Assembly: GCF_964250715.1 (NCBI RefSeq)
Contig: NZ_CAXUGX010000003.1
Span: forward strand, 116,368-180,367
Reading direction: 5' to 3'
Source: an uncultured Amnibacterium sp.
Lineage (GTDB): Bacteria; Actinomycetota; Actinomycetes; Actinomycetales; Microbacteriaceae
DNA length: 64,000 nt
Shown here: in pieces, positions 1 to 64,000 of the stretch
Numbering within the stretch: position 1 is the first letter of the stretch
How the letters are laid out: each line of letters begins with the position of its first letter
The notes under the pieces: model-generated
Told to the model about the DNA's origin: nothing
Databases searched by the model: none
The model's input: the letters and a program-made list of their open reading frames with translations, nothing else
Made by a program: the position numbers and the translations under genes

Positions 1-2
1 CC

Positions 3-646
3 ACCGGCCAATTCCTGCAAGTCGACCCCGCCCTCGAGACCACCCACCAGCCCTACACCTACGGCAACAACAACCCCCTCAATACCACCGACCCAACCGG
101 TCTTTACAAACGAAACGACACGAGTCCATGGGAGCTCGGGCTTCAGTGGCTCACGGGTACGGGGCCCAGGCATCAGGAGTTCCACGCGGGCGACCCCTTC
201 ACAGAACAGCTTCGTCAACACGAACAAATCCGGCAGGACCGGAACGCGATTCGGGAAGCCCTTGAGAAGGACGCATATACACCAGGACAAGCCATCACGA
301 GCGCCGGCGACTTGTCGTACGAGCTCGGAGGCATTGACGGACCTGCAAAATTTGTGAAGGATTACTCGACCCTCGCGACCTTTGGTACAACAGGCAACCT
401 AGCAGTGACCTTTTGGGTGCCTATAGCGTCACGGCAACAGCGCTTCAATCAGCGGTAGGTGATTGCGCAAATGTTCGGTTCACGGTGACGAACACTTCTA
501 ACTTTGCATCTTCAGTTCATCTTCCACTGTATGGACTTATTCCCGGCTACCACAACGTAGAGCGGTTTGAGAACTCGCTCTTCAAGAAAGGCCCACTTTC
601 GCCAACAAATCAGACTATCACCTGGACCGAGGGCATTCGCTGGTGA
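3..646 (+). pseudogene. 3' end of an RHS/YD-repeat polymorphic-toxin gene (RHS core terminus + C-terminal toxin tail); frame broken near T-run 411-414
   Basis: Frame +3 enters from the window edge: ..TGQFLQVDPALETTHQPYTYGNNNPLNTTDPTGL (RHS core end; DPTGL = 90-104). It continues into a non-repeat tail and stops at TAG 456-458. Frame +2 is open from 266, has no ATG/GTG before TTG 413 and no SD. It runs ..LGAYSVTATALQSAVGDC.. to TGA 644-646, which overlaps the start of the next gene. One extra T in TTTT 411-414 would join the frames (..GNLAVTF|LGAYSV..). Confidence 0.6.
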
Positions 647-1092
647 GTTCTCGCCGACTATTCCTAATGGGAGCGATGCCCGTCCTCGTGGCATTTTCTC
701 TTTCTTCATGCGTGGAGCAGCCAATTCCGAAGACGCGCCAGCTTGTCGGAACTTGGCGCGGTGAATACAACAGCCAAATGATACTTATGGTTGACCACAG
801 TTGCGTTGTCACGCGCATTCCGGATGCAGTCACCGCTGGGCAGCCCATTCCTAAAGCCGCAACACGTCACACTATAACCGCCCCGGGCACATGGACGATC
901 GGATCCCCCGTGACAGGACACCAGCGTTCGAACGACGACGTTCCCTTCATCACCATACAGTTCGCAGGTGCTCCGAGAGCCCTAGGATCAGGACTCTTAT
1001 TCAGAGTACAGAACCCTTATGAGATTTACGCCGTTCTGGGTGACCCCGACCTTCATGATCGTTTCACCATGAAACGCACGGACCAAGGATAA
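643..1092 (+). CDS. small secreted lipoprotein, candidate cognate immunity protein of the RHS toxin tail
   Basis: 149-aa ORF. N-terminus MSSRRLFLMGAMPVLVAFSLSSC = signal peptide plus lipobox (L-S-S-C). GTG start overlaps the TGA of the toxin-tail ORF (GTGA 643-646). GC is about 50%, like the rest of 1-2800. Confidence 0.6.
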   Translation: MSSRRLFLMGAMPVLVAFSLSSCVEQPIPKTRQLVGTWRGEYNSQMILMVDHSCVVTRIPDAVTAGQPIPKAATRHTITAPGTWTIGSPVTGHQRSNDDVPFITIQFAGAPRALGSGLLFRVQNPYEIYAVLGDPDLHDRFTMKRTDQG

Positions 1093-1343
1093 AACCTGTG
1101 AGCAAGGCTCGTGCAGGTACTAAAAACCCCCTGAGTTATTCCGGCTACAACAACTCAAAGAGTGAACACCCCAATCCAATCAACGGAATGACGAACGGAA
1201 AAACCTATTCAACGGAGAGACCCTGTTCGCGAGCCCGGGCGACAATGGAGTGGCCTGGATCTCTCCTCGGTCCAGTGACCGACTGGCCCGGTCATTAAGT
1301 ACGGACCTCGCCGTTTCCACCTACTGCCTACTGGGTACGCGCG

Positions 1344-2210
1344 TTGAGCTACTCACTCGAGCCCGTGCCCGAGGGTTCGGACCTGGTTGTCTCAGGTCCC
1401 TGGACAACGCAGATGGCGCAATGCTTCCACAACGGTCTTGCCGATGGGCTGACCCTGAACTATGCGAGAGGATTCCAGGAGCGAAACTTGTCCTTTCTTA
1501 AAGGACTTCCAATACGACGCCTCACGATTCTTGCTCGCACGATGTCTGACCTCGATCCCGTGTACGAGCTTGCAACAACTCTTACGGAGTTGAGTGTCGA
1601 GACTGACGAACGAACGCCGATCGACCTGGGTCGACTGCCTCATCTTCGTATTCTTGCCGCTTCGTGGCGGCAGGTAAGACAAACCATCGGTTCGGCAGAA
1701 AAACTCGAGAAATGCTTGCTGCTCTCATACGAGGAGGTCGATTTGACACCGCTCGGGGCTCTCACCTCGCTGTCAAGTCTTGCTCTCAAGGACCATCCCG
1801 CGGTCGCCTCTCTGGCCGGCCTCGATCGCCTACCATGGCTGACAGATCTCGGCATCTACTCCGCTCGAGATCTAGAAGACCTTTCGGAACTGAGGCGAAC
1901 CGCATCACCAACTTTGCAACGGCTGCAACTCGAATCATGTCGTCGCATAGAAACGCTCGAGGCGATAGCTTGCTGTGAAGCGCTGACGTTCTTGAACGCG
2001 GGAGACTGTGGCGACATTGCCTCCTTGCAGCCGATTGCGCGACTTGGGCGGCTCGAGTCTCTCTACCTGTACGAATCTACTCGAATTGTCGATAACGATT
2101 TAACGCCCATTACGAAGCTGCCTCGCTTGCGCGACTTCCGCATGCGAAGCCGTCGAAGCTATGTACCTAGCGTGCCGGACCTGCAGCAAGCAATCATTGC
2201 TCGGAATTGA
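1344..2210 (+). CDS. leucine-rich-repeat (LRR) protein, possible orphan immunity/accessory protein of the RHS locus
   Basis: 288-aa ORF with periodic LxxLxxLxL units (LPHLRILAAS, LTSLSSLALKD, LPWLTDLGIYS, LQRLQLESC, LTFLNAGDC, LGRLESLYLYE, LPRLRDFRM). Low GC like the RHS tail. Start (TTG 1344 or a later ATG) uncertain. Confidence 0.55.
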   Translation: MSYSLEPVPEGSDLVVSGPWTTQMAQCFHNGLADGLTLNYARGFQERNLSFLKGLPIRRLTILARTMSDLDPVYELATTLTELSVETDERTPIDLGRLPHLRILAASWRQVRQTIGSAEKLEKCLLLSYEEVDLTPLGALTSLSSLALKDHPAVASLAGLDRLPWLTDLGIYSARDLEDLSELRRTASPTLQRLQLESCRRIETLEAIACCEALTFLNAGDCGDIASLQPIARLGRLESLYLYESTRIVDNDLTPITKLPRLRDFRMRSRRSYVPSVPDLQQAIIARN

Positions 2211-2886
2211 TCTAAGATAGTTACCATCGATGACTTGGGTGATTCGAGCGCGGCGGACTCTGCTGAGCTTTTCGTAGTTGCCTGAATCCTAGTTCAGGAG
2301 GGCGGTAGTCCGAAAACCCACCGACTGCGATGTGATGAGGCTCAGGAAATCAGACGCAAGGGGGTCGTGTACTGTGCGCGGCCAACGACATACCAGGGAA
2401 TGGACGGTCGACGCGAGCGCCGATAAGATCCATTATCGGCGCACGTGGTCGCTCTCGAAGGCTCGCTTCCGAAGCAACGGTCACTTTGGAAGCCAGTAAC
2501 TGAGTGCACCCCGGGTCAGACGGACAAGCCTTTCTCCAAGGTCAGGGCTAAAGCTCCACGCTTCGTACGAGTCCGATGCGTTGACGACGAGGGTCAGCTG
2601 TCCTGCCTGGAGTGTTAGTGCGCGTCAAGCCATCTACCTCCGCTACCAAAACCGCGGTGGATAATTGGTAATACCGCTCCGAGACTGCTGGCCTGCTCGG
2701 GGTCAACTGATTCACCTGAACTCAGAAGAGAAGGCGTCTCTATTCTGAGCTGTGCAACATCATTGCACACGATAGTCGAGCCAAAGTCGACTCGCACTTG
2801 CGTAACGGTTAGGCCGGTCAGTGCGAGTGTCCCGCCCGACTCAACGGACCCTTTCCACCTCGGATCTGAACAGACGCGTCGCGGGG

Positions 2887-5265
2887 TCAGGCGCGGCCGT
2901 GCGGCCAGGTCCAGTCGGCGATCGCCGGGTCGTCCTCGCCGTGCTCGCGGGTGTAGCGGCGGGCGGCCAGGCGCGCGTCCTGCATGCGCTGCCGCAACTC
3001 CGCGTGCCGGGTGCCCAGGCTCGGCACGCGGTCGATCACGTCGATGACCAGCGCGAACCGGTCGAGCGCGTTCATCATCACCATGTCGAAGGGCGTGGTG
3101 GTCGTGCCCTCCTCGATGTAGCCGTGCACATGGAACTGGTCGTGGTTGGCCCGCTTGTACGTCAGGCGGTGGACCAGGCTCGGGTAGCCGTGGTAGGCGA
3201 AGATCACCGGCTTGTCGGGCGTGAAGACGGCGTCGAACTCGGTGTCCGGCAGGCCGTGCGGATGCTCGGAGTCGCTCTGCAGCCGCATCAGGTCGACCAC
3301 GTTCACGACCCGCACCGCCAGGTCCGGCAGGGCGCGGCGCAGGATGTCGGCCGCCGCCAGGGTCTCCAGCGTCGGGATCTCGCCCGCGCAGGCGAGCACC
3401 ACCTCCGGCTCATTGTTCGTCGTCGACGCCCACTCCCAGATGCCGAGCCCGCGCGTGCAGTGTGCGATCGCCTGCTCCATCGTCAGATAGTCCAGCTGCG
3501 GCTGCTTGCCCGCCACGATCACGTTTATGTACTGCCGGCTGCGCAGCACGTGGTCGCCGACGCTGAGCAGGCAGTTCGCGTCCGGCGGCAGGTACACCCG
3601 CGCGATCTCGGCCTTCTTGTTCACCACGTGGTCGATGAAGCCGGGGTCCTGGTGGCTGGAGCCGTTGTGGTCCTGCCGCCACACATGGCTGCTGAGCAGG
3701 TAGTTCAAGCTGGCGATCGGCGCCCGCCACGGGATTCGGTTGATGTCGTGCAGCCACTTGGCGTGCTGGTTGACCATCGAGTCGACGATGTGCGCGAATG
3801 CCTCGTACGAGTTCAGCAGGCCGTGGCGGCCGGTCAGCAGGTAACCCTCCAGCCAGCCCTGGCACAGGTGCTCGCTCAGCACCTCCATCACCCGGCCGTC
3901 CGGCGCCAGATGGTCGTCGGTGTCCAGGATGGGCGCCTCCCACGTGCGGTTCGCCTCCTCGAAGACGGCGGAGAGGCGGTTGGAGGCGGTCTCGTCGGGG
4001 CCGAAGATGCGGAATCGCTCCGGATTCAGGCGCATCACGTCGCGCAGGTACTGCCCGAGCACGCCGGTGGCGGAGTGGGAGGTGGTGCCGGGCTGCTGCA
4101 CGTCGACCGCGTAGTCGCGGAAGTCGGGCAGCTCCAGGTCCTGCACCAGCAGGCCGCCGTTGGTGTGCGGATTGGCGCCCATCCGGCGGTCGCCCTGCGG
4201 GGCGAGCGCCTGCAGCTCGGGGACGAGCGCGCCCTCGTCGTCGAACAGCTCGTCGGGGTGGTAGCTCTGCAGCCACTGCTCCAACTGCCGCAGGTGGCTC
4301 TCGTTGGTGCGCACCTCGGAGAGCGGCACCTGGTGGGCGCGGAAGGTGCCCTCGATCTGCTGACCGTCGACGACCTTCGGCCCGGTCCAGCCCTTGGGGG
4401 TTCGCAGCACGAGCATCGGCCACGGCACGGGATGCTGCGGAGCGCCGCCGTCGCGCGCCGCCTGCTGCATGGCGGCCAGGTCGTCCAGGGCGCCGTCGAG
4501 GGCGTCGGCCAGCGCGCGGTGCACGAGGGCCGGATCGTCGCCCGAGACGACCACGGGGGCGTAGCCGTGGCCGCGCAGCAGGGACAGCATCTGCTCCTCC
4601 GGCATGCGGGCCAGCACCGTGGGGTTGGCGATCTTGTAGCCGTTCAGGTGCAGGATCGGGAGCACGGCGCCGTCGCGCGCGGCGTCGAGGAATGCGACCG
4701 ACTGCCAGCTGGTGGCGAGCGGCCCGGTCTCGGCCTCGCCGTCGCCGATCACGCAGAACGCGACGAGGTCCGGGTTGTCGAACACGGCGCCCGCGGCATG
4801 CATCAGGGAGTAGCCCAGCTCGCCGCCCTCGTTGATCGAGCCGGGCGTCTCCGGAGCGGCGTGGGAGGGGATGCCGCCGGGGAACGAGAACTGCCGGAAC
4901 AGCCGGTGGATGCCCTCGGTGTTGCGGCCGATCCGCGGGTACACCTCGGTGTAGGTGCCTTCGAGGTAGGTGTTCGCGACCACCGCCGGACCGCCGTGGC
5001 CCGGACCGGTGACGAAGATCGCGTCCAGGTCGCGCTCGCGGATCACCCGGTTGCAGTGCGAGTACAGCAGGTTCAGCCCGGGCGTGGTGCCCCAGTGGCC
5101 GAGCAGCCGCGGCTTGATGTGGGCGGGCTCCAGCGGCTGCCGCATCAGGGGATTGTCGAGCAGATAGATCTGCCCGACGGAGAGGTAGTTGGCGGCGCGC
5201 CAGTACCGGTCGATCAGCGCGAGGTCGTCGTCGGTGGCGGTGGTGCGTTCCGCGGTGCTGGTCAT
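2887..5265 (-). CDS. xfp: xylulose-5-phosphate/fructose-6-phosphate phosphoketolase
   Basis: 792 aa. Hallmark phosphoketolase blocks: [67 protein letters not shown]. Confidence 0.95.
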
Positions 5266-5583
5266 CGGTGTTCCTCTCGGACGCCGGTGGCCGGCGCCCC
5301 TTCACCGGTCAGCGTGGCCGGTCAAGCTGGCCGCCCGCCCTGTGGACGTGACACACCCACCGGCCCTCCTACGGCGCACCCCGCACAAGTACGGAGTACC
5401 AGCCCAAGTACGGAGCACCGTGCTCAACTACGGATGAATCGGGCCCGAACACGGCGTGTCGGCTGGGATCTCCGTAGTTGGGCGGGGAGCGCTGAGGGCG
5501 CCGTCTTCACCGACGCCGCGAAGCCGGCTTCCTGGCGGGCTGCCGTCGAGCCGGCCGTCGGCACCTGCCGATAACGTGAGGCC

Positions 5584-6129
5584 GTGAGCATCGAGCAGAC
5601 GGTGACGGCCCTCCCGAGCGAGTCGACGCAGGCGCAGGCGGTGGCGGTACCGCCCAGGGAGATCCTTCGGTGGGACGAGGTGGGCACGGCCGCGCGGCAA
5701 CTGGCCACCGACATCACCGCCAGCGGATTCGACCCCGAGATCGTGGTCGCGATCGCCCGAGGCGGCCTGCTGGTGGGCGGTGCGCTCGCCTACGCCCTGG
5801 GCGTCAAGCGGTGCGGCTCCATCAACGTCGAGCTGTATACCGGCGTCGACCAGACCCTCCCCGAGCCGCTGCTGCTCGCGCCGCATCTGGACGGGGAGTC
5901 GCTGGCCGGACGGCGCGTGCTGCTGGTCGACGACGTCTCGCAATCCGGGCTGACGCTCAAGCTGGCCGTCGACATCATCAGCCGCATGGGCGCCGACGTG
6001 CGCACCGCCTGCTACTACACGAAGCCCCAGACGGTGTTCGTGCCCGACTTCTCGTGGCGCGAGACGGACCGCTGGATCGTCTTCCCGTGGTCCGCCGAGC
6101 CGCCGGTCACCGGAGCCCGCGCGGAATGA
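5584..6129 (+). CDS. type-I phosphoribosyltransferase (xanthine/guanine PRT-like)
   Basis: 181 aa. PRPP-binding loop RVLLVDDVSQSGLTL. Size and layout match purine PRTs. Confidence 0.75.
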   Translation: MSIEQTVTALPSESTQAQAVAVPPREILRWDEVGTAARQLATDITASGFDPEIVVAIARGGLLVGGALAYALGVKRCGSINVELYTGVDQTLPEPLLLAPHLDGESLAGRRVLLVDDVSQSGLTLKLAVDIISRMGADVRTACYYTKPQTVFVPDFSWRETDRWIVFPWSAEPPVTGARAE

Positions 6130-6135
6130 CCGCGT

Positions 6136-6888
6136 GTGGAACGACCTCCGCGGCCCGACCTGCATGACCGTCGGGCGGACGACTCCCTCCTCGTGAGTGC
6201 GCCGGGACTCGCCGAACTCGCCTCGACCGGCCGCATCGATCCCGGCTGGGCCGCGGCGCTCGCCCCGGTCGAGGACGACCTGCTCCGCATGCAGGCGTTC
6301 CTCGACGCCGAGGAGGCGGCGGGCCAGACCGTGCTGCCGGCGCGCGCCGACGTACTGCGCGCGTTCCGCACGCCGTTGAATCACGTGCGGGTCGTGATCC
6401 TGGGCCAGGACCCCTACCCGACCCCCGGCCATCCGATCGGGCTCGCCTTCGCGGTGGAACGACACGTGCGGCCCCTGCCGCGCAGCCTCGTGAACATCTA
6501 CACGGAGCGGCGCAGCGACCTGGGGCTCGCTCCAGCAGCCCATGGCGACCTCTCGGCCTGGACCGAGCGCGGAGTCCTGCTGCTCAACCGCTGCCTGACC
6601 GTGCGGGCCGGCCAGGCGGGCTCGCACGCCAAGCAGGGCTGGGAGTCGGTCACCGCCGCGGCCCTGCAGGCGCTCGCCGATCGCGGCGGCCCCCTCGTCG
6701 CGGTGCTGTGGGGCAAACAGGCGCAGACCGCGGCACCGGTGCTCGTCGGCGTCCCGCAACTGCACTCCGCGCATCCGAGCCCCCTCTCCGCACGCAACGG
6801 CTTCTTCGGCTCCCGCCCCTTCAGCCGCATCGACGAGTCGCTGACGCAGCAGGGCGCGCAGCCGATCGACTGGAGCCTGCCCGCGTAA
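6136..6888 (+). CDS. ung: uracil-DNA glycosylase, family 1
   Basis: Motifs VVILGQDPYPTPGHPIGLAFAV and LHSAHPSPLSA. Start could be GTG 6136 or a slightly later GTG. Confidence 0.9.
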   Translation: MERPPRPDLHDRRADDSLLVSAPGLAELASTGRIDPGWAAALAPVEDDLLRMQAFLDAEEAAGQTVLPARADVLRAFRTPLNHVRVVILGQDPYPTPGHPIGLAFAVERHVRPLPRSLVNIYTERRSDLGLAPAAHGDLSAWTERGVLLLNRCLTVRAGQAGSHAKQGWESVTAAALQALADRGGPLVAVLWGKQAQTAAPVLVGVPQLHSAHPSPLSARNGFFGSRPFSRIDESLTQQGAQPIDWSLPA

Positions 6889-6919
6889 GCTCGCCCGTCG
6901 TGCTGGAGGAGGAGCCATC

Positions 6920-7498
6920 ATGCTGGAAGAGGAGTACGCCGAACGCCGCGTCAAGCCGTTCCACCTGCGCCGCTTCGATCCGCCCGAGGCGCCGTTCGCC
7001 TATGAGATCCGCAGCGCGCAGCCGCGCGACCTGCCCGATGTGCGCGAGATCTACAACCACTACGTCACCAACAGCGTCGTCACGTTCGACGAGGATCGTA
7101 TGTCGCTTGCGGAATGGAAGTCCAAGTACGCCTACCTGATGCGCCTCAAGCTGCCGTTCCTGGTCGCGGTGTCGCCATCGGGGCAGGTGCTCGGGTACGC
7201 GCTCTGTGCGCCGTGGAATCAGAAGCGCGCCTACCGCTTCACCGCCGAGAACTCGATCTACCTGCGGGCGGCGTCCACCGGCAAGGGGCTGGGCCACGCG
7301 CTGCTCGGTGCTCTGCTGGACGCCGCCAAGCAGGCGGGGTTGAAAGAGGTGCTGGCGATCATCGCCGACTCCGGGGCCGAGGCGTCGCTCGCGCTGCACC
7401 ACAGCTTCGGCTTCAAGGACACCGGGCGGATGGGCCACGTCGGGTTCAAGTTCGGGCACTGGATCGGCACGGTGCTGCTGCAGAAGTCGCTCAAGTAG
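6920..7498 (+). CDS. GNAT family N-acetyltransferase (phosphinothricin/MSX acetyltransferase-like)
   Basis: 192 aa. Acetyl-CoA-binding-type block RAASTGKGLGHALLGALLDAAKQAG. Overall layout of PAT-type GNATs. Confidence 0.75.
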   Translation: MLEEEYAERRVKPFHLRRFDPPEAPFAYEIRSAQPRDLPDVREIYNHYVTNSVVTFDEDRMSLAEWKSKYAYLMRLKLPFLVAVSPSGQVLGYALCAPWNQKRAYRFTAENSIYLRAASTGKGLGHALLGALLDAAKQAGLKEVLAIIADSGAEASLALHHSFGFKDTGRMGHVGFKFGHWIGTVLLQKSLK

Positions 7499-56652: not shown

Positions 56653-57516
56653 ATGGCTGACATCCCCATCCCGACTCGCGCCGTCCTCACCCCGGAAGGG
56701 ACCGTGGGGGCAGGTGCCCGCCTTCCCGCGATCGGCCTCGGTACCTACGGTCTGCGCGGAGCCGCGGGTGTCGCCGCGGTCGGTACCGCCATCGACGCGG
56801 GCTTCCGGTTGCTGGACACCGCCTTCAACTACGACAACGAGGGCGCCGTCGGCCGCGCGATCATCGACTCGACGGTGCCTCGCGACGAGTTGATCTACTC
56901 GACCAAGCTGCCCGGTCGGTACCACGGATACGAGCTTGCGCTGCAGGCCGTCGAGGAGAGCCTGTTCCGGAGCGGGCTCGACCGCCTGGACCTCGTGCTC
57001 ATCCACTGGCCGAATCCGTCAGTGCGCAAGTACGTGGAGGCGTGGCGGGCACTCGTCGAGGCGCGCGAACGCGGACTCGTTCGCATGATCGGCGTCTCCA
57101 ACTTCCTGCCCGAGCACCTGGACCGCATCATCGGCGACAGCGGCGTCGTCCCGGTTCTGAACCAGATCGAGGTGCACCCGTACCACCCGCAGGACGAGGT
57201 GCGAGCGGCGAACGCGGAACGCGGCATCCTCACCGAGGGCTGGTCGCCGCTCGGCGCGAGCAGCGATCTGATCGGCCACGACATTGTCACCGGGATCGCG
57301 GAGGCGCACGGCACGTCGCCCGCGCTCGTGCTGCTGGCCTGGTCGATCGCCCTCGGGGTGATCCCGCTGCCGAAGTCTGCGACCGCGGCGCGTCAGGCAG
57401 CGAACCTCACCGCGTTCGATCTCGAACTCGGCGCCACCGACCTCGACCGCTTGCGCCGGCTCGCCGGTACCGACGGCCGGCGACACTCCGACCCGAGTGA
57501 GCACGAGGAGATGTAG
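56653..57516 (+). CDS. aldo-keto reductase (2,5-diketo-D-gluconate-reductase-like)
   Basis: 287 aa. AKR catalytic tetrad blocks LDTAFNYDNE (Asp/Tyr), STKLP (Lys), LVLIHWP (His). Confidence 0.85.
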   Translation: MADIPIPTRAVLTPEGTVGAGARLPAIGLGTYGLRGAAGVAAVGTAIDAGFRLLDTAFNYDNEGAVGRAIIDSTVPRDELIYSTKLPGRYHGYELALQAVEESLFRSGLDRLDLVLIHWPNPSVRKYVEAWRALVEARERGLVRMIGVSNFLPEHLDRIIGDSGVVPVLNQIEVHPYHPQDEVRAANAERGILTEGWSPLGASSDLIGHDIVTGIAEAHGTSPALVLLAWSIALGVIPLPKSATAARQAANLTAFDLELGATDLDRLRRLAGTDGRRHSDPSEHEEM

Positions 57517-57572
57517 CAGGCAGGATGACAGCACCGGTTCCTCCGCAGAGCCACGTTCAAGGAGACCATCGC

Positions 57573-58469
57573 ATGCGCGTGTTCATCACTGGAGCTTCCG
57601 GCTGGATCGGATCCGCCGCCGTCGACGAGTTGTTGGCCCACGGGTACGACGTCACGGGACTGGCGCGATCGGACACGTCCGCCTCCGCCCTCGAGGCGAA
57701 GGGTGCGACCGTGCTGCGCGGGGACCTCGACGACCTCGACAGCCTGCGTCGCGGGTCGCAGGACGCCGACGCCGTCATCCACCTCGCCAACAAGCACGAC
57801 TGGGCGAACCCCGCCGAGTCGAACCGTGCCGAGCGGGCCGCTGTGGAGACGATCGCCTCCACCCTGGTCGGCTCGAACCGTCCGTTCCTACTGGCCTCCG
57901 GCGTTGCGGGGCTGGCGCAGGGCCGCCCATCGACCGAGCAGGACCCGTCGCCCTTCAGCGGCCCGGAAGCGCCGCGCGGCGGTACCGAGAACCTGGCGCT
58001 GGACTACCTCGACCGCGGGGTGAAGTCGATCAGTCTGCGCTTCGCGCCGACCGTGCACGGCATCGGCGATCACGGTTTCATCTCGCTCATCGTCGCGGCA
58101 GCTCGCGAGAAGGGCGTCTCGGGGTTCGTCGGTGATGGGACGAGCGGGTGGGCGGCCGTGCACCGCACTGATGCGGCGACGATGATCCGACTCGGACTCG
58201 AGAAGGCTCCGGCCGGCTCGCTGCTGCACGCCGTCGGTGAGACCAGCGTCGCGACGAAGGACATCGCCGAAGCGATCGGCCGCGGCCTCCGCCTCCCCGT
58301 CGAGTCGATCGATCCCGCCGACGCGGTCACTCACTTCGGCTTCATCGGCGGATTCTTCGCCCTGGACCTCTCGTCGACCAGCACCATCACCCAGCACCTG
58401 TTCGACTGGACCCCCACCGGCCCGACCCTGCTCGACGACATCACCGCCGGCGCGTACTTCGAGGTCTGA
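57573..58469 (+). CDS. atypical/extended SDR (NAD-dependent epimerase/NmrA-like)
   Basis: Start taken at MRVFITGASGWIGSA (Rossmann). 298 aa. Confidence 0.75.
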   Translation: MRVFITGASGWIGSAAVDELLAHGYDVTGLARSDTSASALEAKGATVLRGDLDDLDSLRRGSQDADAVIHLANKHDWANPAESNRAERAAVETIASTLVGSNRPFLLASGVAGLAQGRPSTEQDPSPFSGPEAPRGGTENLALDYLDRGVKSISLRFAPTVHGIGDHGFISLIVAAAREKGVSGFVGDGTSGWAAVHRTDAATMIRLGLEKAPAGSLLHAVGETSVATKDIAEAIGRGLRLPVESIDPADAVTHFGFIGGFFALDLSSTSTITQHLFDWTPTGPTLLDDITAGAYFEV

Positions 58470-58686
58470 GCGTCACGCCAGGCAGCGCTTCACGCGGGGT
58501 CGACGCTCGCGCAGACCATTCGTTGCAGCGCTCGGTGGGCCGATCTGAAGCCCCCAGTCGGTCACATCAGCGTGACGCGGACCAACGCCCCGCGACGATG
58601 TCGGGCTCATCTTTGAGCGGCCCTCGGTGCGTGCGGTGAACCACCCCATGGCCGCACTCTTCTCCGCCCCGTCCGCGACGACGAGG

Positions 58687-58992
58687 TCAGGCCGCGAGCG
58701 TGAAGTCGCCTCGGTGCGGCGCGACGGGTGCGGCGGTGCGCTCCTCGCGCAGCTGCTCCGCGACGGCCGCGGTCAGGTCGAGCAGCGTCGTCTCGAGTGC
58801 CGCGGCGATCGCGGCGACGACCTCGCTCGAGGGCTCCTTGACGCCGCGTTCGACCTCGGACAGGTACTGCACGGACAGGTTGGCGCGCCGGGCGACGGCC
58901 CCCAGCGTCTCCTGACGAGCGCGGCGGAGTGCGCGCAGTCGATGGCCGAGGAGGTGGCGCCAGAGTCGTTCGGGCTTTCCGGAGAAGGTCAC
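58687..58992 (-). CDS. clgR: XRE-family regulator of the ClgR/PopR (Clp gene regulator) type
   Basis: 101 aa from GTG 58992. HTH ..[37 protein letters not shown].. closely follows the ClgR block [20 protein letters not shown]. Lies immediately downstream of clpP. Confidence 0.75.
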   Translation of the reverse strand: [101 protein letters not shown]

Positions 58993-59126
58993 GACTGCAG
59001 TCAAGCGGCCGACTCCTCCGTCCGCCCGGTGTTCTGCTCTCAGCAGAAGCCGTCTACCCCTGCATGCCCTCGAGGATCGTCTGCTCCTGCCCGATCTCGG
59101 GAGGCAGGAGGAGATGTCGTCCACCT

Positions 59127-59744
59127 TCAGCTGCGGGAGACCGCGACCGGGACGCTGCGGTCGGTGCCTCCTCCGCCCGCGACGTCTGCGGCGGACGACC
59201 GGATCTGGTCGACGAAGCCGTAGTCCAGGGCCTCCTCGGCCGTGAACCACCGGTCGCGGTCGCCGTCCGCGTCGATCTGGGCGACCGTCTTGCCGGTCGC
59301 CTCCGCGGTGATCTCGGCGAGCCGGCGCTTCATGGCGATGATGATCTGCGCCTGCGTCTGGATGTCGCTCGAGGTGCCGCCGAACCCGCCGTGCGGCTGG
59401 TGCAGCAGGACCCGCGCGTTCGGGGTGATGTAGCGCTTGCCCTTCGTGCCCGCTGTGAGCAGCATCTGTCCCATCGAGGCCGCCATCCCGATGCCGACCG
59501 TCACGACGTCGTTCGGCACGAACTGCATGGTGTCGTAGATCGCCATCCCCGCGGTGACCGAGCCGCCGGGGGAGTTGATGTAGAGGTAGATGTCGCGCTC
59601 GGCGTCCTCCGCCGCGAGCAGCAGCAGCTTCGCCGCGATCTCGTTCGCGTTGTCGTCGCGCACCTCGCTGCCCAGCCAGATGATCCGGTCGCGGAGCAGG
59701 CTGTCGAACACGTTCGGGGTGATGGCGGGACCGTCCATGAGCAT
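59127..59744 (-). CDS. clpP: ATP-dependent Clp protease proteolytic subunit (solitary copy)
   Basis: 205 aa. YINSPGGSV, Ser in GMAASMG, His in LLHQPHGG, Asp in DRDRWF. ClpP1-like with a short N-terminus. Confidence 0.9.
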
Positions 59745-60128
59745 CGTTCCTTGTCGTCGATCAGCAGGAGGAGGGCGCCGGCTCGCTTCCGAAGGAGCGC
59801 GGTGCGACGACGGTAGAGCCCGCTCAGGCGGCGTCGGCTCGCTTCTGCTGAGGGCAGACGAGGGCGCCCGGAGGACCCGTGGGTGCGGCGAGCGCGGTGC
59901 GCAGCCGTCTCACGCGCATCGCACTGATCCTCGTCGGTGTGATCGCGCTGGCCATCGGCCCGGTGGCACGCATCCATCGGGCGGGTAGAAGACCTGGTAG
60001 AGCGCGTGTTTCTACCAGGGGATTATTCTATCTCCAGACCAAAGGCATGCCGAAAGCACTCCGCAAGTAGCTGGGCGTGGCTAGGCTGCCCGGGACGTCA
60101 CCCAGCGTCGTGCTAACAGGAGACCCTC

Positions 60129-61442
60129 TTGAGTGACCAGGCAAGCGACTCGGAACCGCGCGCTACGCCCGAACTCTTCGAGGAAGTCGAGGACGAGTCG
60201 ACGGAGATTGAGGATGAGTCCGCCGAATCCGAAGACGCCGCGGACACGGCGTCGGACGGCGGCTCGGAACCATTGGTACCTAAGCCTAGGCGCACGCGCC
60301 ACGTGCGTTTGTTCCCTGCACTGTCGTTCAAAGAAGCGCTGTTCCTCGCTGAATCCATCCAGCTTCACGGTGCAGGGCAGCCGATCCGTCGGCTCACACT
60401 CTTTGAATCTCTCAACCGCGCGGCAGAGGGAGGCACCACACGAAAGCTCATCACCAGTAGTGGGCAGTACGGCCTGACGACCGGCGCATACAACGCCGAC
60501 TTCCTTGAGCTCACCCAGCTCGGATCTATCGCGTCGAATCCCGATGCTGCCCCAGCGGCAAAAGTTGCGGCGCGCTTCAAGCTCGCGATTGAAACCGTCG
60601 CACCGTTCAAATTTATCTACGATCGCTACCGTGGGAACCGACTTCCCACCGTCGAGGTGTTGCGCGACGCAGCGCGCGAGGCGGGCATATTTGAGGATCT
60701 GGTCGCGGAGTGCATTGAAACATTCCTGGCTAATGCACGCGAGCTTGGTGTTATTAGGACCATTGGTGGTTCTGAACACCTCGTTCCCATCGAGGCTGTT
60801 GTGGAGCGCATGGATGACGGTGGCGTCGCTATGGACGCGACGTCCTCGGAGCGTCCCGTTCGTGCTCCGGGCGGGACAAGTGGGGCAGCCCTCACCTCTA
60901 GTGCTCCTGCGTCGCGACGAGGAGCCCGTGTTGGGGACGAGTTTGACGACGTTTGCTTTGTGATCTCGCCCATCGGCAGTCCCGGTTCCGCTGAGCGCAG
61001 GCATGCGGATTTGGTCCTTACGGCCTTGATCGAGCCTGCGCTGAAGGACTTGGATCTTCGTGCAGTTAGAGCCGACGGGATCAGTAAGCCCGGATTGATC
61101 ACTGGTCAAGTGATGGAGCACGTCGCAAAATCAAGGCTGGTCATCGCGGACCTGAGCTTTAGCAACCCAAACGTCTATTACGAGCTCGCTTTGCGGAATG
61201 CAACCCGCAAACCCGTCGTGCAGTTGATACGCACGGGCGACAAGCTTCCGTTTGATGTGGGGCAATACCGCACGGTCGAGATTGACATGACCGATATATA
61301 CGTGCTCGTTCCTCAAATCGACTTGCATCGCCAAGAGATCACCCGTCAGGCGCGAGCTGCTATTGCAGAAGGCGCAACCTCTGAAAGTCCGTTGTCTCAA
61401 TTCTATCCAGCCTTCTGGGACCATATCCTTCCGCGTGCTTAG
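60129..61442 (+). CDS. 437-aa multidomain protein: acidic tail, two winged-helix-like modules, C-terminal nucleoside-2-deoxyribosyltransferase-like/TIR-like domain
   Basis: TTG start with SD AGGAG 7 nt upstream. Residues 1-45 are Asp/Glu-rich. Residues 60-135 and 155-225 are helical wHTH-like (..KLITSSGQYGLTTG..LELTQLG; ..FLANARELGVIRTIGG..). Residues 273-385 read CFVISPIG..LRAVRADG..GQVMEHV..SRLVIADLSFSNPNVYYELALRNATRKPVVQL..LPFDV..YR. Confidence 0.7.
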   Translation: MSDQASDSEPRATPELFEEVEDESTEIEDESAESEDAADTASDGGSEPLVPKPRRTRHVRLFPALSFKEALFLAESIQLHGAGQPIRRLTLFESLNRAAEGGTTRKLITSSGQYGLTTGAYNADFLELTQLGSIASNPDAAPAAKVAARFKLAIETVAPFKFIYDRYRGNRLPTVEVLRDAAREAGIFEDLVAECIETFLANARELGVIRTIGGSEHLVPIEAVVERMDDGGVAMDATSSERPVRAPGGTSGAALTSSAPASRRGARVGDEFDDVCFVISPIGSPGSAERRHADLVLTALIEPALKDLDLRAVRADGISKPGLITGQVMEHVAKSRLVIADLSFSNPNVYYELALRNATRKPVVQLIRTGDKLPFDVGQYRTVEIDMTDIYVLVPQIDLHRQEITRQARAAIAEGATSESPLSQFYPAFWDHILPRA

Positions 61443-61689
61443 TCAGCCCCGCGCCATGAAGGCTTCGAACCGGCTGCAATTTCCGGACCCAGTTCCCGAA
61501 TACGTGAAGGAGCGTGTCCCCTTGCTCGCAGGCTTCCGGAAGTCGCACTCACTCGGTTAGCTAAAGGATCCTGCAGGCGGTCTATCTGTACGGAGTGTTC
61601 TGCGAGGACCAGATGCTCGTGGGTTGCTCAGCCGTCTAGAGCATGTCGCTCCACAAGCGGTCACGCGGACGAGGTCACGCCGCACGCCG

Positions 61690-61775
61690 GGTACTCCCGG
61701 TACGCCGAGCCGGCCACTGCTGACCTGTCCGCGACCAGCAGTTCACGCGCCGTGCCGACCGGCTGCATCGGTTCG
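61690..61775 (-). repeat. copy A of an ~85-bp repeat carrying a 35-codon minus-strand micro-ORF (61661..61768)
   Basis: MQPVGTARELLVADRSAVAGSAYREYPACGVTSSA. About 78% nt identity to copy B. Confidence 0.5.
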
Positions 61776-61826
61776 AGAGAGCGAGACAGCCGCTTCGTAG
61801 GATGACGAACTCATAGAAGGAGACCG

Positions 61827-62537
61827 ATGCCTCGCAATTTCTCGTGGACCGAGGATGAGGTACTCCTGGTGGCCGACGCGGTCGACCGCGCTGATTGGAC
61901 GGGCGTCCGTGCCACGTCAGAGGTCGCGACGAAGCTGTCGGATCTGCTCCGCGGGGCCAGGATTCATCCCCTGGAGGGCCGACCCGACGACTTCCGCAGC
62001 TCGTCGAGTGTGCAGCGCAAGGCGGAGGACATCAGGACCCTGCATCCTGACTACACGGGCGTTCCTACTCGCGGCGGCAGCCTCACAGCGGCTGTCGTAG
62101 AACGCTGGCTCCATGATCCTGCGGCAGGGCGCCGCGACGCGGCGGTCGCGCGGAGACTTATGGAGAGCGGCGAGGCCCTCGACCCTGCGATAGACCAAGA
62201 CGCTGAGGCGAGCGAAGGTCGCCTAATAGCGGCATGGGTTCGTCGTCGGGAAAGGGACCCCGCCATCCGGCGACGCAAGCTCGAGCACATCGCCGAGACC
62301 GGTCGACCTCGAGACTGCGAGGTCTGCGGCTTCAACTTCGACCGCGTCTACGGAGCGGACCACGCGGTCGGCTACGTCGAGGTTCACCACGTCGTGCCGC
62401 TCCACGTAAGTGGACTAACCAGCACACGGCTCGATGACCTCGTGCTCCTGTGCGCCAACTGCCACCGCATGCTGCATCGCGGCGGCACCTACACGCCCGG
62501 GGACCTTCGGCGAGCGATCGGAGAGCAGCGCCCGTAG
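61827..62537 (+). CDS. HNH endonuclease (COG3183-type predicted restriction nuclease)
   Basis: 236 aa. C-terminal CEVCGFNFDRVYG..GYVEVHHVVPLH..LDDLVLLCANCHRMLH (beta-beta-alpha-Me with a Cys4-type zinc site). N-terminal ~110-aa domain with FRSSSSVQRKAEDIRTLHPDY. Confidence 0.85.
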   Translation: MPRNFSWTEDEVLLVADAVDRADWTGVRATSEVATKLSDLLRGARIHPLEGRPDDFRSSSSVQRKAEDIRTLHPDYTGVPTRGGSLTAAVVERWLHDPAAGRRDAAVARRLMESGEALDPAIDQDAEASEGRLIAAWVRRRERDPAIRRRKLEHIAETGRPRDCEVCGFNFDRVYGADHAVGYVEVHHVVPLHVSGLTSTRLDDLVLLCANCHRMLHRGGTYTPGDLRRAIGEQRP

Positions 62538-62611
62538 AGCCCGTCAGACGGCTCGTAAGCGTCCGCCGCTCGGTTCTCGGTGTAAAGCCACTGCGGTTAG
62601 ACCGCACGCAG

Positions 62612-62697
62612 GACACCGCCAATACGCCGAGCCGCTGAGGACGGTCCGGTCCGTGATAAGCAGTTCGCGCGCGGAGCCGGCCGGCAGCATCGGCTCA
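62612..62697 (-). repeat. copy B of the ~85-bp repeat carrying a 48-codon minus-strand micro-ORF (62544..62690)
   Basis: MLPAGSARELLITDRTVLSGSAYWRCPACGLTAVALHREPSGGRLRAV. See copy A. Confidence 0.5.
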
Positions 62698-62743
62698 AGG
62701 CGGCCGTGCGGGACGGCGGCTCAAGGTCAAGCCGGCGCGAGGG

Positions 62744-63429
62744 ATGCACCTACCCCGCGTATCGGCGACGCCGAAGCGCTACCTGACCGTGGCGCAGGTG
62801 CACGAACTTGCGGAGATCGTCGACGGGATCGGGGCGGGCAAGCAGAACGGTGCCGCGAACGGGTACGGCACCCTCGTCCGCGTCCTTGCCTTCTGTGGTC
62901 TGCGCTGGGGCGAGCTGTCCGGGCTGCGCGTCGGCGACATCGACTTCCTCCGCGGCAGGCTCGAGATCCAGCACACCGTCGTGGAGTCCGGGGGAGTGCA
63001 GGTCGAGTCGACCCCGAAGGACTACGAGGCGCGCAGCGTTCCGGTAGCGAGGTCGATCCTTAACGAGCTCGCCGTCCTCGTCGCCGGCCGCGGCGTCCAG
63101 GAGCGGGTGTTCCGCGGCGCCCGCAGTGGCTCCCGGATCCGCGGCAAAGGTCTTCCGCCCCGGATGCTGCAGCGGCTCACATCGGCGAGCCCAGGCTGAC
63201 TCCGCACGAACTGCGCCACGCGGCCGCAAGCCTCTCGGTGAGCCTCGGCGCGAACGTGAAAACCTTGCAGCGGATGCTCGGTCACGCGTCGGCCGCGGTC
63301 ACCCTCGACGTGTACGCGGACCTCTTCGATTCCGACAATAACGCGCTCAGCGTGGTCCTCGATCGCGTAGCTTCGCGTCCATTTCGCGTACACCGGCGCT
63401 CTGAGCCGGAAAAGGTGAGGGCCCTATGA
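62744..63429 (+). pseudogene. tyrosine recombinase/integrase remnant: N-terminally truncated and frameshifted catalytic domain
   Basis: Frame +2 reads ..KRYLTVAQVHELAE..LAFCGLRWGELSGLRVGDIDF..ESTPKDYEARSVPV.. and stops at 63199. Frame +1 then reads ..RLTPHELRHAAASLSVSLGANVKTLQRMLGHASAAVTLDVYADLF... The R..HxxR..H..Y catalytic residues are split over two frames. No core-binding domain lies upstream. Confidence 0.8.
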
Positions 63430-63450
63430 CCAGTTCACACTCTTTCGGGG

Positions 63451-63462
63451 TGTGCCCCCAGC
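63451..63462. repeat. 12-nt direct duplicate (TGTGCCCCCAGC) of the tRNA-Arg 3' end (63470-63481), att-scar-like
   Basis: Exact 12/12 repeat, spaced 19 nt (start to start), between the integrase remnant and the tRNA. Confidence 0.6.
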
Positions 63463-63471
63463 TTTCGGCTG

Positions 63472-63543
63472 TGCCCCCAGCAAGATTCGAACTTGCGCCC
63501 CTGCCTCCGGAGGGCAGTGCTCTATCCCCTGAGCTATGGGGGC
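63472..63543 (-). tRNA. tRNA-Arg (anticodon CCG)
   Basis: Minus strand GCCCCCATAGCTCAGGGGATAGAGCACTGCCCTCCGGAGGCAGGGGCGCAAGTTCGAATCTTGCTGGGGGCA folds as a 72-nt cloverleaf. 7-bp acceptor, GCTC/GAGC D stem, CTGCC/GGCAG anticodon stem, loop CTCCGGA, GCAAG/CTTGC T stem with TTCGAAT loop. CCA is not encoded. Confidence 0.9.
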
Positions 63544-63603
63544 CAGGTGGGTCCACGGTAGCAGCCGGGGTCACCTCGCCCCGAGTCGCATTGGGGCCGA
63601 CTA

Positions 63604-64000
63604 TCAGCTCGGCGGGCGGGTGGCAGCGGCCAGGTCGGCGCGCAGCTCGTCGGCCGTGTCGACCGTGACGTAGCCCGGGGTGTCGCGCTGGATGCGCCAG
63701 CTCTCCGACAGCGGGCCGCCGTCGACCACGTCGAAGCCGAACTCGTCGATCAGGGCTCGGACGGTCGTGCGGGCGGCCTCGTCGTCGCCGAAGATCGCCA
63801 GCGCGCGGCGGCCCGGGGTGCCGGCCGGCGTCGGCTGCTCCGTCAGGTGCGCCGCCATGATGTGGTTGAAGGCCTTCACGACCTTCGAGTCGGGCAGGTG
63901 GTGCTGCAGCAACTCCGCGGTCGTCGTCGACTCGGTGTCCAGCGCCGCGATCTGCCCGTCGCGCTGCGGGTAGTAGTTGTTCGTGTCGATCACGATCTTG
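63604..64000 (-). CDS. NADP oxidoreductase, coenzyme-F420-dependent (NpdG-like) family, C-terminal part (gene continues past the window)
   Basis: ..KVVKAFNHIMAAHL.., ..AIFGDDEAARTTVRALIDEFGFDVVDGGPLSESW... The frame stays open to the window edge. Confidence 0.6.
   Translation of the reverse strand, partial: KIVIDTNNYYPQRDGQIAALDTESTTTAELLQHHLPDSKVVKAFNHIMAAHLTEQPTPAGTPGRRALAIFGDDEAARTTVRALIDEFGFDVVDGGPLSESWRIQRDTPGYVTVDTADELRADLAAATRPPS

Follow-up and report, generated by a model that had tools for sequence, protein, structure and literature searches.

What kind of system is formed when winged-helix-like modules are joined in one polypeptide to a predicted N-glycosidase, and does such a protein act against phages without a partner? 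The question is raised by a horizontally acquired gene at positions 60129–61442 (plus strand) of a 64,000-nucleotide (nt) stretch of contig NZ_CAXUGX010000003.1 from an uncultured Amnibacterium sp.; this whole stretch is hereinafter designated the window. A prediction made from the letters of the window alone took the gene for the best candidate for an undescribed single-gene defence system (the original prediction). Here we compare the protein with its homologues, with structure models, and with known immune systems. Our preferred answer, held with moderate confidence, is that the gene is a stand-alone, single-protein conflict or defence module on a decayed tRNA-Arg integrative island.

The gene encodes a conserved two-domain protein

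The open reading frame (ORF) encodes 437 amino acids (aa) and, as originally predicted, has a Shine-Dalgarno-like sequence and a TTG start of its own, the TTG being the first start codon past the upstream stop (Table 1). Some homologues are annotated as starting later, at the sequence MSFKEALFL. The codon at that point in the window is CTC, which makes the short form impossible here. The long form is supported because of this codon and because a basic motif upstream of the same point, RxRxxRxFP, is conserved among the homologues in an alignment of 30 sequences. Searches returned 475 homologues, all of them unnamed, and the best 120 of the 475 share 52–72% identity with the query over 75–97% of its length. 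We conclude that the 437-aa ORF is a real, strongly conserved gene.

Invariant positions in the 30 homologues cluster in two folded regions, and the tail and the linker vary in both sequence and length. The full-length AlphaFold2 model, built on the same alignment, has a mean predicted local distance difference test score (pLDDT) of 78 and a predicted TM-score (pTM) of 0.49. The acidic disordered tail and the Ser/Ala/Gly-rich linker of the original prediction are both recovered. Specifically, residues 1–47 contain 19 Asp/Glu versus one Lys/Arg, with block-mean pLDDT of 43–56 across residues 1–50, and the next 15 residues contain five Lys/Arg; the N-terminal domain (N-domain, about residues 60–230) has pLDDT above 90; and residues 233–269 of the linker fall below 50.

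The C-terminal domain is predicted to be an N-glycosidase of the NDT/TIR class

The C-terminal domain (C-domain) is modelled as a five-stranded alpha/beta fold, with strands at residues 275–279, 311–314, 337–342, 363–368 and 381–385 and helices between them. E352 lies at the start of helix 349–358, after the third strand. In Foldseek searches of the PDB, the C-domain matches MilB first (E = 6.8e-4), followed by DNPH1, the TIR domains of SARM1 and of C. elegans TIR-1, BcmB, TIR-STING and nucleoside 2-deoxyribosyltransferase (NDT), with target-length-normalised TM-scores of up to 0.5–0.63 for the single-domain matches. PDB entry 8qhr, a glycosyl-enzyme intermediate of DNPH1, is among them.

Sequence searches of the PDB with the single protein or with a full-length profile returned nothing meaningful; only a profile of diverse C-domains reached DNPH1 (DNPH1/Rcl, E = 0.0015). 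In that alignment the family segment '...ADLt..NpNVfYELa...kP' is paired with 'VVAEVTQPSLGVGYELGRAVALGKP' of DNPH1, with 'NpNVfYELa' on 'SLGVGYELG', and Y351-E352 falls on the Tyr-Glu of the GYELG segment. In DNPH1 and NDT enzymes the equivalent glutamate is the nucleophile.

The motif series on which the fold assignment had been based (CFVISPIG / LRAVRADG / SRLVIADLS / KPVV / LPFDV) is present and near-invariant in the 30 homologues, and the glutamate singled out after the third strand, E352, is invariant. It is also one of twelve residues that are invariant across much more divergent members, whose core signature reads C[FY]V..P[IF]G, R.D, [AV]D[LMI][ST]..N[PA]N[VA].YE, P[FY]D[VI]. Consistent with the original assignment, the modelled fold and the profile alignment place the C-domain in the NDT/DrHyd/TIR class of Rossmann-like domains (structural neighbours NDT, DNPH1, MilB and TIR), with the predicted catalytic-glutamate position filled by E352.

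Pfam and NCBIfam scans assign the window protein to no family. PF05014 (Nuc_deoxyrib_tr, gathering score 28.8 bits) gives no match to it at E ≤ 1, and relatives score 18–20.6 bits, under the gathering score. The window protein has no Pfam match to PF10137, the TIR domain of CAP12 and Pycsar. PF13271 (DUF4062/NIR) gives no match at E ≤ 1 to the window protein and none in the divergent relatives scanned, and DUF4062/NIR membership was rejected on this ground. No PADLOC system model covers the protein, which matches only weakly the model of a CBASS TIR effector (E = 1.3e-6, 25.5 bits). The C-domain matches the phage protein family phrog_3634 at E = 5e-38.

The C-domain family is very large and has no Pfam model. 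At least 4570 clusters belong to it in a candidate-limited search. Among 1.84 billion representative proteins, 22,605 representative clusters match the full-length profile through either domain at E ≤ 0.001, many of them covering one half of the profile only. The C-domain forms the N-terminal half of very many proteins of 240–260 aa with a helical C-terminus, and in one variant (P0225) it stands in tandem with a second, more NDT-like copy.

Relatives of the C-domain occur in a TIR operon and in temperate phages

In a tblastn search of plasmids, the C-domain was found at the N-terminus of proteins annotated as 'TRAFs-binding domain-containing'. One of them, WP_012489397 of Rhizobium plasmid pRspN561b (locus L060), joins a C-domain relative to PF13281/PF20308 (TPR-S), and its gene is followed by a SLATT gene and then by a ThsB-type TIR gene. 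The window protein and the L060 protein share 35% identity over 113 residues (BLASTP, E = 6e-15) and the motifs CFV..P.G / RAD / ADL[ST]..N.NV.YEL / LPFDV. ThsI, a CMP-hydrolase-like domain with TPR, defines type VIII Thoeris and ThsH, a SLATT protein, type VII; the two occasionally occur in one operon, and both answer cyclic ADP-ribose (cADPR) with growth arrest (bioRxiv 10.64898/2025.12.03.692087).

Compared with type VIII Thoeris, the window protein has an effector domain homologous to that of the ThsI-like L060 protein, no match to PF20308 or PF13281, and no TIR gene beside it; nor does a TIR gene recur beside the homologues in the 33–38 loci analysed below. Membership in Thoeris, CBASS or Pycsar was rejected, there being no adjacent TIR or cyclase gene. 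Upstream of the L060 operon, on the opposite strand (486–3648), lie genes for a TIR protein, a QueC-like protein (7-cyano-7-deazaguanine synthase), an HhH-GPD glycosylase and a second TIR protein; the combination is unusual and may amount to one more TIR-based system.

In phages, tblastn found the C-domain in 45 temperate Firmicutes phages. SpyM3_0974 of Streptococcus prophage 315.2 (259 aa, 43% identity to the window C-domain) has its place in the lysogeny module, with the repressor gene on one side and cro on the other, and is oriented like the repressor and integrase genes. ORF45 of S. aureus phage SAP-26, also a C-domain relative, lies antisense inside the replication module. Both are in phrog_3634, a family without an assigned function, which may be the family mentioned by Iyer et al.

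In L062–L065 (about 5106–7020), the gene for a short form of 236 aa follows that of an Mrr_N/Mrr_cat restriction enzyme at a distance of 23 nt and could there be part of a multi-gene arrangement. In three of these four loci a 97–99-aa ORF follows the short form; the mobilisable element in which it lies carries relaxase, primase, VapE-like and Mom genes.

The N-terminal domain resembles tandem winged helices

In a model of its own, the N-domain (pLDDT 90, pTM 0.85) is helical and contains two units, each a helix-turn-helix plus a hairpin. Foldseek pairs it with winged-helix proteins throughout: DtxR/MntR, O-methyltransferases (their winged-helix heads), SelB WH2-4, a FokI-like phage protein and the recognition domain of BpuJI. 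The best match is a MarR protein of a Gordonia phage (E = 0.006) in BFVD, a set of viral structures, and the best match in the PDB has E = 0.02. Of the two winged-helix modules originally proposed, the fold is thus backed by a confident model, but the structural matches are weak. 'Tandem winged helix' is a reasonable label for the modelled domain, from which we infer a possible role as a DNA sensor.

The sole informative fusion among 20 architecture variants scanned with Pfam, P0216, joins a relative of the N-domain (43% identity, E = 1e-46) to a PF10137 CAP12/Pycsar TIR domain. This fusion shows, as far as architecture goes, that the two domains are separable modules and that the N-domain can carry either the present type of C-domain or a CAP12-type TIR effector. 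Two further variants, P0304 and P0313, have in place of the enzyme a short conserved C-terminal tail with a motif that reads roughly IHID(S)..A...QIDQIF.SMARHLY; the tail has no Pfam match.

The structural matches of both domains bear on a different reading, in which the protein would be a restriction-like, non-abortive glycosidase directed at DNA or modified nucleotides: the winged helices would sit on phage DNA, and the C-domain would excise bases or hydrolyse 5-hydroxymethyl-dUMP or 5-hydroxymethyl-dCMP. The top query-normalised TM-scores of the N-domain (0.42–0.43) belong to type IIS recognition domains, BpuJI and FokI-like; the nearest enzymes of the C-domain are DNPH1, named '5-hydroxymethyl-dUMP N-hydrolase' in the PDB, and the CMP N-glycosidases MilB and BcmB; and the next gene in the window encodes an HNH protein resembling a type IV methyl-directed restriction enzyme. 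However, the BpuJI and FokI-like matches are not significant (E = 0.12–0.33), the HNH gene is not a conserved neighbour, and we know of no NDT-fold enzyme that acts on polymeric DNA. In addition, related ThsI-type effector domains arrest growth when activated (bioRxiv 10.64898/2025.12.03.692087); this speaks for a target in the cell rather than one specific to phages. We consider this reading unlikely.

A more far-reaching and quite improbable proposal is that the protein is a nucleic-acid-templated N-glycosidase with a new portable DNA sensor. The winged helices would recognise invading DNA, such as hypermodified or replicating phage DNA, the enzyme would assemble on it, and the DNPH1/MilB-like domain would attack 5-hydroxymethyl-dUMP, 5-hydroxymethyl-dCMP or DNA bases. 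If true, a fold that is not known to work on polymers would here perform base-excision restriction, and TIR effectors would share with this protein a new portable DNA-sensor module, the N-domain.

The gene travels without a conserved partner other than an integrase

With one genome scanned per species, full-length homologues were found at 48 loci. They are sparsely spread over Actinomycetota, Pseudomonadota, Bacteroidota, Planctomycetota, Acidobacteriota, Synergistota and Myxococcota; carriers among Actinomycetota include Mycobacterium, Microbacterium, Nocardioides and Rhodococcus. In 32 of 33 loci the gene has a GC content no higher than that of the 20 kb around it (e.g., 0.41 versus 0.63, and 0.45 versus 0.67), and in seven actinobacterial loci a tRNA gene lies within 600 bp of the homologue.

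In three loci the homologue is the cargo of a small bounded element. True attachment (att) repeats of a tRNA 3' end, 26–46 nt long, enclose elements of 3.8–6.8 kb at tRNA-Met or tRNA-Gly: L016 9729–13563 (39-nt repeat), L015 8319–15190 (46 nt) and L014 9693–15291 (26 nt). In all three mini-islands the homologue is the first gene and the integrase the next. The L016 integrase is cut to 209 aa.

The gene travels alone: when all ORFs of 40 aa or more lying up to 2.5 kb from the homologue in 38 loci were compared all against all by BLAST, the sole recurrent neighbour was a tyrosine integrase (six loci, including the window), and no other conserved partner was found. The individual neighbourhoods are varied. 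Near the homologues lie an Eco57I-type methyltransferase/ATPase cluster and a prophage early region in Arthrobacter; PIN-TPR, TIR_2, DUF2971 and Mrr in Microbacterium; tig-clpP and an integrase in Mycolicibacterium; and, in two further loci, an OLD-like ATPase with PIN toxins and insertion sequence fragments, and an adjacent CBASS cyclase with a TIR-STING effector.

Two genes on each side of the homologue in 33 loci (126 proteins) match 72 PADLOC models, including CBASS cyclase, TIR-STING, type I restriction-modification and PycTIR, and Pfam finds Phage_integrase in six of this near-gene set. The outermost genes, at least 6 kb away (109 proteins), match 18 PADLOC models; transport and metabolism are among the top 25 Pfam families shown for them, and integrase is absent among those 25. 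The genes were called with a custom program, which in four test loci found 50 of the 58 genes annotated there. The census does point in the same direction as the annotated loci. Published figures for NIR domains, set against the genomic background, are 20% versus 3.9%. The original prediction would have failed had the homologues sat mainly in housekeeping operons; they lie outside such operons, as isolated low-GC genes by integrases, tRNAs, prophage lysogeny regions and defence genes.

This distribution bears on three other explanations. In the first, the protein is an orphan or trans-acting effector, whose N-domain would bind a second messenger (a cADPR isomer or a cyclic nucleotide) made by a distant TIR protein, CD-NTase or cyclase and thereby activate the glycosidase. 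Such a role is suggested by L060, where the same effector domain is coupled to a TPR-S signal sensor in a TIR operon, by P0216, where the N-domain takes the sensor position before a CAP12/Pycsar-type TIR, and by the one locus with an adjacent CBASS cyclase and TIR-STING. It is rather unlikely in view of three observations: no cyclase or TIR gene recurs beside the homologues in the 38 loci, the 3.8–6.8 kb mini-islands hold the homologue and little else, and the N-domain resembles DNA/RNA-binding winged helices, not SAVED, CARF, STING, SLOG or TPR-S.

Secondly, the gene might serve the mobile element itself, as toxin-like addiction cargo that stabilises the island or as anti-defence cargo that degrades host immune nucleotides. 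Small islands with an integrase carry it as their main or sole cargo, and its effector domain also occurs on plasmids and in temperate phages. Yet no adjacent conserved small ORF was found in the 38 loci that could be an antitoxin candidate. The prophage 315.2 homologue has the position and orientation of a lysogeny-module gene, and the lysogeny module is the usual site of prophage exclusion genes. Moreover, the window island is decayed and the gene is intact and highly conserved, which suggests selection at the level of the host. Taken together, these points make addiction or anti-defence cargo decidedly unlikely.

Finally, a one-component transcription regulator or a housekeeping nucleotide-salvage enzyme could have a similar layout, with the NDT-like domain reading or processing a nucleoside signal and the winged helices regulating. 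Winged helices are typical of regulators, and the TIR/DrHyd/SLOG class includes members that sense nucleotides without catalysis (PMC9503650). This explanation is very improbable given the sparse, patchy spread across phyla, a gene GC content below that of the host, neighbours that vary with no conserved target operon, the invariance of all putative catalytic residues, and the homology of the domain to the effector part of a Thoeris-type effector.

A proposed mechanism and its weak points

As a stand-alone defence module, the protein could work as follows. The N-domain would be a sensor for nucleic acid or another infection-associated ligand. In the resting state the acidic tail would possibly keep the N-domain off, the tail and the basic arm together modulating it. 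Ligand binding would make the C-domains associate as dimers or larger oligomers, a step on which NDT, DNPH1 and TIR enzymes depend, and the assembled C-domains would hydrolyse the N-glycosidic bond of NAD+ (most likely) or of the nucleotide pool. The infected cell would then arrest, and phage replication would be aborted. NAD+ is the first-guess substrate because Avs2 domains annotated 'CMP hydrolase' proved to be NADases. A nucleotide may equally be the substrate, since the nearest relatives by profile are nucleotide hydrolases.

Several points weigh against this interpretation. The nearest enzymes by profile, DNPH1 and MilB, hydrolyse nucleotides, not NAD+. The N-domain has only generic winged-helix matches, none at E ≤ 0.001 in the PDB or BFVD, and it is winged-helix topology and conserved basic residues that suggest nucleic-acid binding. 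The geometry between the two domains is unreliable in the AlphaFold2 model, as the pTM of 0.49 indicates. We take the L060 TPR-S protein to be ThsI-like from the match of its operon to a textual description, there being no accession to compare. As for the neighbourhoods, those of the Enemella locus (L005) and several like it are ordinary metabolic genes, and the near/far census is crude and small, drawn from 33–38 loci with a custom gene caller and counting PADLOC models, not systems.

The gene is thus a candidate single-gene immune module of Actinomycetota and several other phyla, with a putative sensor domain that has no characterised relative. A Thoeris-type effector and proteins from the lysogeny modules of Streptococcus and Staphylococcus prophages belong to the same effector family, and knowing whether the family's substrate is NAD+ or a nucleotide would annotate thousands of proteins and clarify ThsI-type killing. 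The N-domain, which can carry this C-domain or a CAP12-type TIR, is a possible reusable sensor, and its ligand would reveal a new infection cue.

The gene lies beside the remnant of a tRNA-Arg island

Table 1. Positions in the window of the gene, the parts of its protein and the neighbouring island features
Feature	Position	Strand	Basis
Shine-Dalgarno-like AGGAG	60118..60122	+	read from sequence; 6 nt upstream of TTG
Gene for tandem winged-helix + NDT/TIR-like protein, 437 aa, stop included	60129..61442	+	ORF, homologues, alignment
Residues 1–47, acidic disordered N-terminal tail	60129..60269	+	composition, pLDDT; variable among homologues
Residues 48–62, basic arm ahead of folded N-domain, consensus RxRxxRxFP	60270..60314	+	consensus and invariant columns; 5 Lys/Arg
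Residues 63–230, tandem winged-helix-like N-domain, putative sensor/nucleic-acid-binding module	60315..60818	+	AlphaFold2, weak Foldseek matches
Residues 231–272, Ser/Ala/Gly-rich disordered linker	60819..60944	+	low pLDDT; length variable, not conserved
Residues 273–437, NDT/DNPH1/MilB/TIR-like alpha/beta domain with C-terminal helical extension, putative N-glycosidase effector	60945..61439	+	Foldseek, profiles
E352 codon, invariant Glu, predicted catalytic	61182..61184	+	alignments; matches Glu of DNPH1 GYELG
HNH endonuclease gene, 236 aa, separate island cargo	61827..62537	+	PF01844 3.4e-10; PADLOC mREase_IV 1.2e-8
Tyrosine integrase pseudogene, truncated, frameshifted	62717..63345	+	tblastn with homologue-flanking integrases; split PF00589
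tRNA-Arg(CCG), 3' end towards integrase remnant, right-hand island boundary	63471..63543	-	ARAGORN; Rfam RF00005 67.8 bits

The gene had been described as part of a lower-GC island bounded by a tRNA-Arg and a dead integrase. It does lie in a low-GC tract, but the tract spans only about 59950–61600 (0.54–0.62 versus 0.66–0.72 around), and so covers the gene with little on either side; GC in the HNH gene and in the integrase remnant is 0.65–0.70, as in the host. Similarly, both bounding features exist, but both lie to the right of the gene. No left att site was found in the window, either with the 23-nt tRNA 3' end allowing up to three mismatches or with exact 10-mers. The usual marks of a tRNA island are therefore present in part: a tRNA boundary and an adjacent tyrosine integrase, the latter a pseudogene, without a direct repeat at the far end. 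The integrase is indeed dead. Its remnant matches aa 158–448 of the 474-aa integrase of locus L011 in two reading frames (tblastn), and the PF00589 matches are divided between ORFs 62744–63196 and 63238–63426. A 15-nt near-duplicate, GGGTGTGCCCCCAGC / GGCTGTGCCCCCAGC, at 63448–63462 and 63467–63481, at and just past the tRNA-Arg 3' end, may be the scar of an old att site.

The gene is flanked by ClpP and an XRE regulator on one side and by the HNH gene and the integrase remnant on the other. A AGGAGACC ribosome-binding site of its own, similar to that of the gene under study, precedes the HNH gene, whose PADLOC match is to the model of a type IV methyl-directed restriction enzyme. The HNH gene was rejected as a partner, as it does not recur in the all-against-all BLAST of 38 loci; in the Rhodococcus locus L056 an HNH protein is encoded about 800 bp downstream of the homologue. 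A direct repeat of about 105–130 nt (61660–61790 and 62582–62712; 72% over 105 nt, about 66% over a 131-nt alignment) flanks the HNH gene. Its right copy adjoins the integrase remnant, and its left copy has a very weak integrase-like tblastn match (E = 0.54). The repeats may have been left by two island insertions in succession or by the insertion of an HNH cassette.

Directly upstream of the island, an XRE-type helix-turn-helix ORF (58687–59744, minus strand) overlaps the 3' end of the ClpP gene. In Mycolicibacterium loci L014 and L015, the same gene family is inserted beside tig-clpP via tRNA-Pro/tRNA-Gly, and the recurring ClpP neighbourhood is probably due to tRNA targeting rather than function. 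Where the GC content begins to drop, upstream of the gene, a stem-loop at 59993–60019 (10 pairs, G-T allowed) is followed by GGATTATTCT; such stem-loops are not above chance, with one site versus 1.9 expected in the scan. Positions 1–3000 of the window form a second low-GC stretch (0.55–0.59 versus about 0.70), which suggests another acquired segment.

Comparison with known systems

That no named system was recognised at the outset agrees with our searches: none matched in PADLOC, Pfam, NCBIfam or the literature. The stronger word 'undescribed' holds for the architecture, of which no description was found in the literature searched (subscription journals lying outside its scope), but not for the effector, whose family is common to ThsI-like Thoeris and which has precedents in Swarozyc, Vulcan and retron II.

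Among enzymes, DNPH1, MilB, BcmB and the NDTs give the best structural and profile matches, with the Tyr-Glu of DNPH1 aligned; they are only about 12–18% identical to the C-domain, however, and are small housekeeping or biosynthetic enzymes without a sensor domain. CAP12 and PycTIR (PF10137), the TIR proteins of CBASS and Pycsar, have the same fold class. The weak PADLOC match and the P0216 fusion also link them to the window protein, but its C-domain has no PF10137 match, and no cyclase gene lies beside the window gene to supply the cyclic nucleotides that activate those effectors.

Retron type II-A effectors (Retron-Eco1/Ec86, Retron-Sen2) likewise join NDT-like and winged-helix DNA-binding domains (PMC7736814). 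The effector binds multicopy single-stranded DNA and forms NDT-like dimers with a glutamate in the active site (bioRxiv 10.1101/2023.08.16.553469). In contrast to the window protein, the NDT-like domain is N-terminal there and the winged helix C-terminal, and the system needs an adjacent reverse transcriptase and a non-coding RNA, neither of which accompanies the window gene: there is no reverse transcriptase among its neighbours and no Rfam retron RNA in 57000–64000. PDB profile searches, which included Ec86 structures, returned no retron effector. Identity with a retron effector was rejected on the missing reverse transcriptase, the missing non-coding RNA and the reversed domain order.

The ThsI-like effector of type VIII Thoeris is alike in fusing a sensor to an NDT-like effector of the same sequence family. 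In ThsI the sensor is a C-terminal TPR-S/MAP3K_TRAF_bd domain, whereas that of the window protein would be the N-terminal tandem winged helix; and ThsI works with an adjacent ThsB-type TIR that makes cADPR, a companion that the window gene and its homologues lack.

Similar in plan are Swarozyc (DUF4062 plus an auxiliary domain) and Vulcan (NIR/DUF4062 plus HEAT), single-protein defences with TIR/NDT-like NADases described in 2026 preprints. They too place a sensor and a TIR/NDT-like domain with a catalytic glutamate, here predicted, in one polypeptide. They act by abortive infection through NAD+ depletion, with an effector first annotated as 'CMP hydrolase'. They differ from the window protein in that their effector is PF13271 and N-terminal, their HEAT or auxiliary sensors recognise phage proteins, and they have been tested experimentally. 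Set beside these systems, the window protein has an effector of an already known type, from a biochemically uncharacterised family; what is new is the architecture and the candidate sensor domain.

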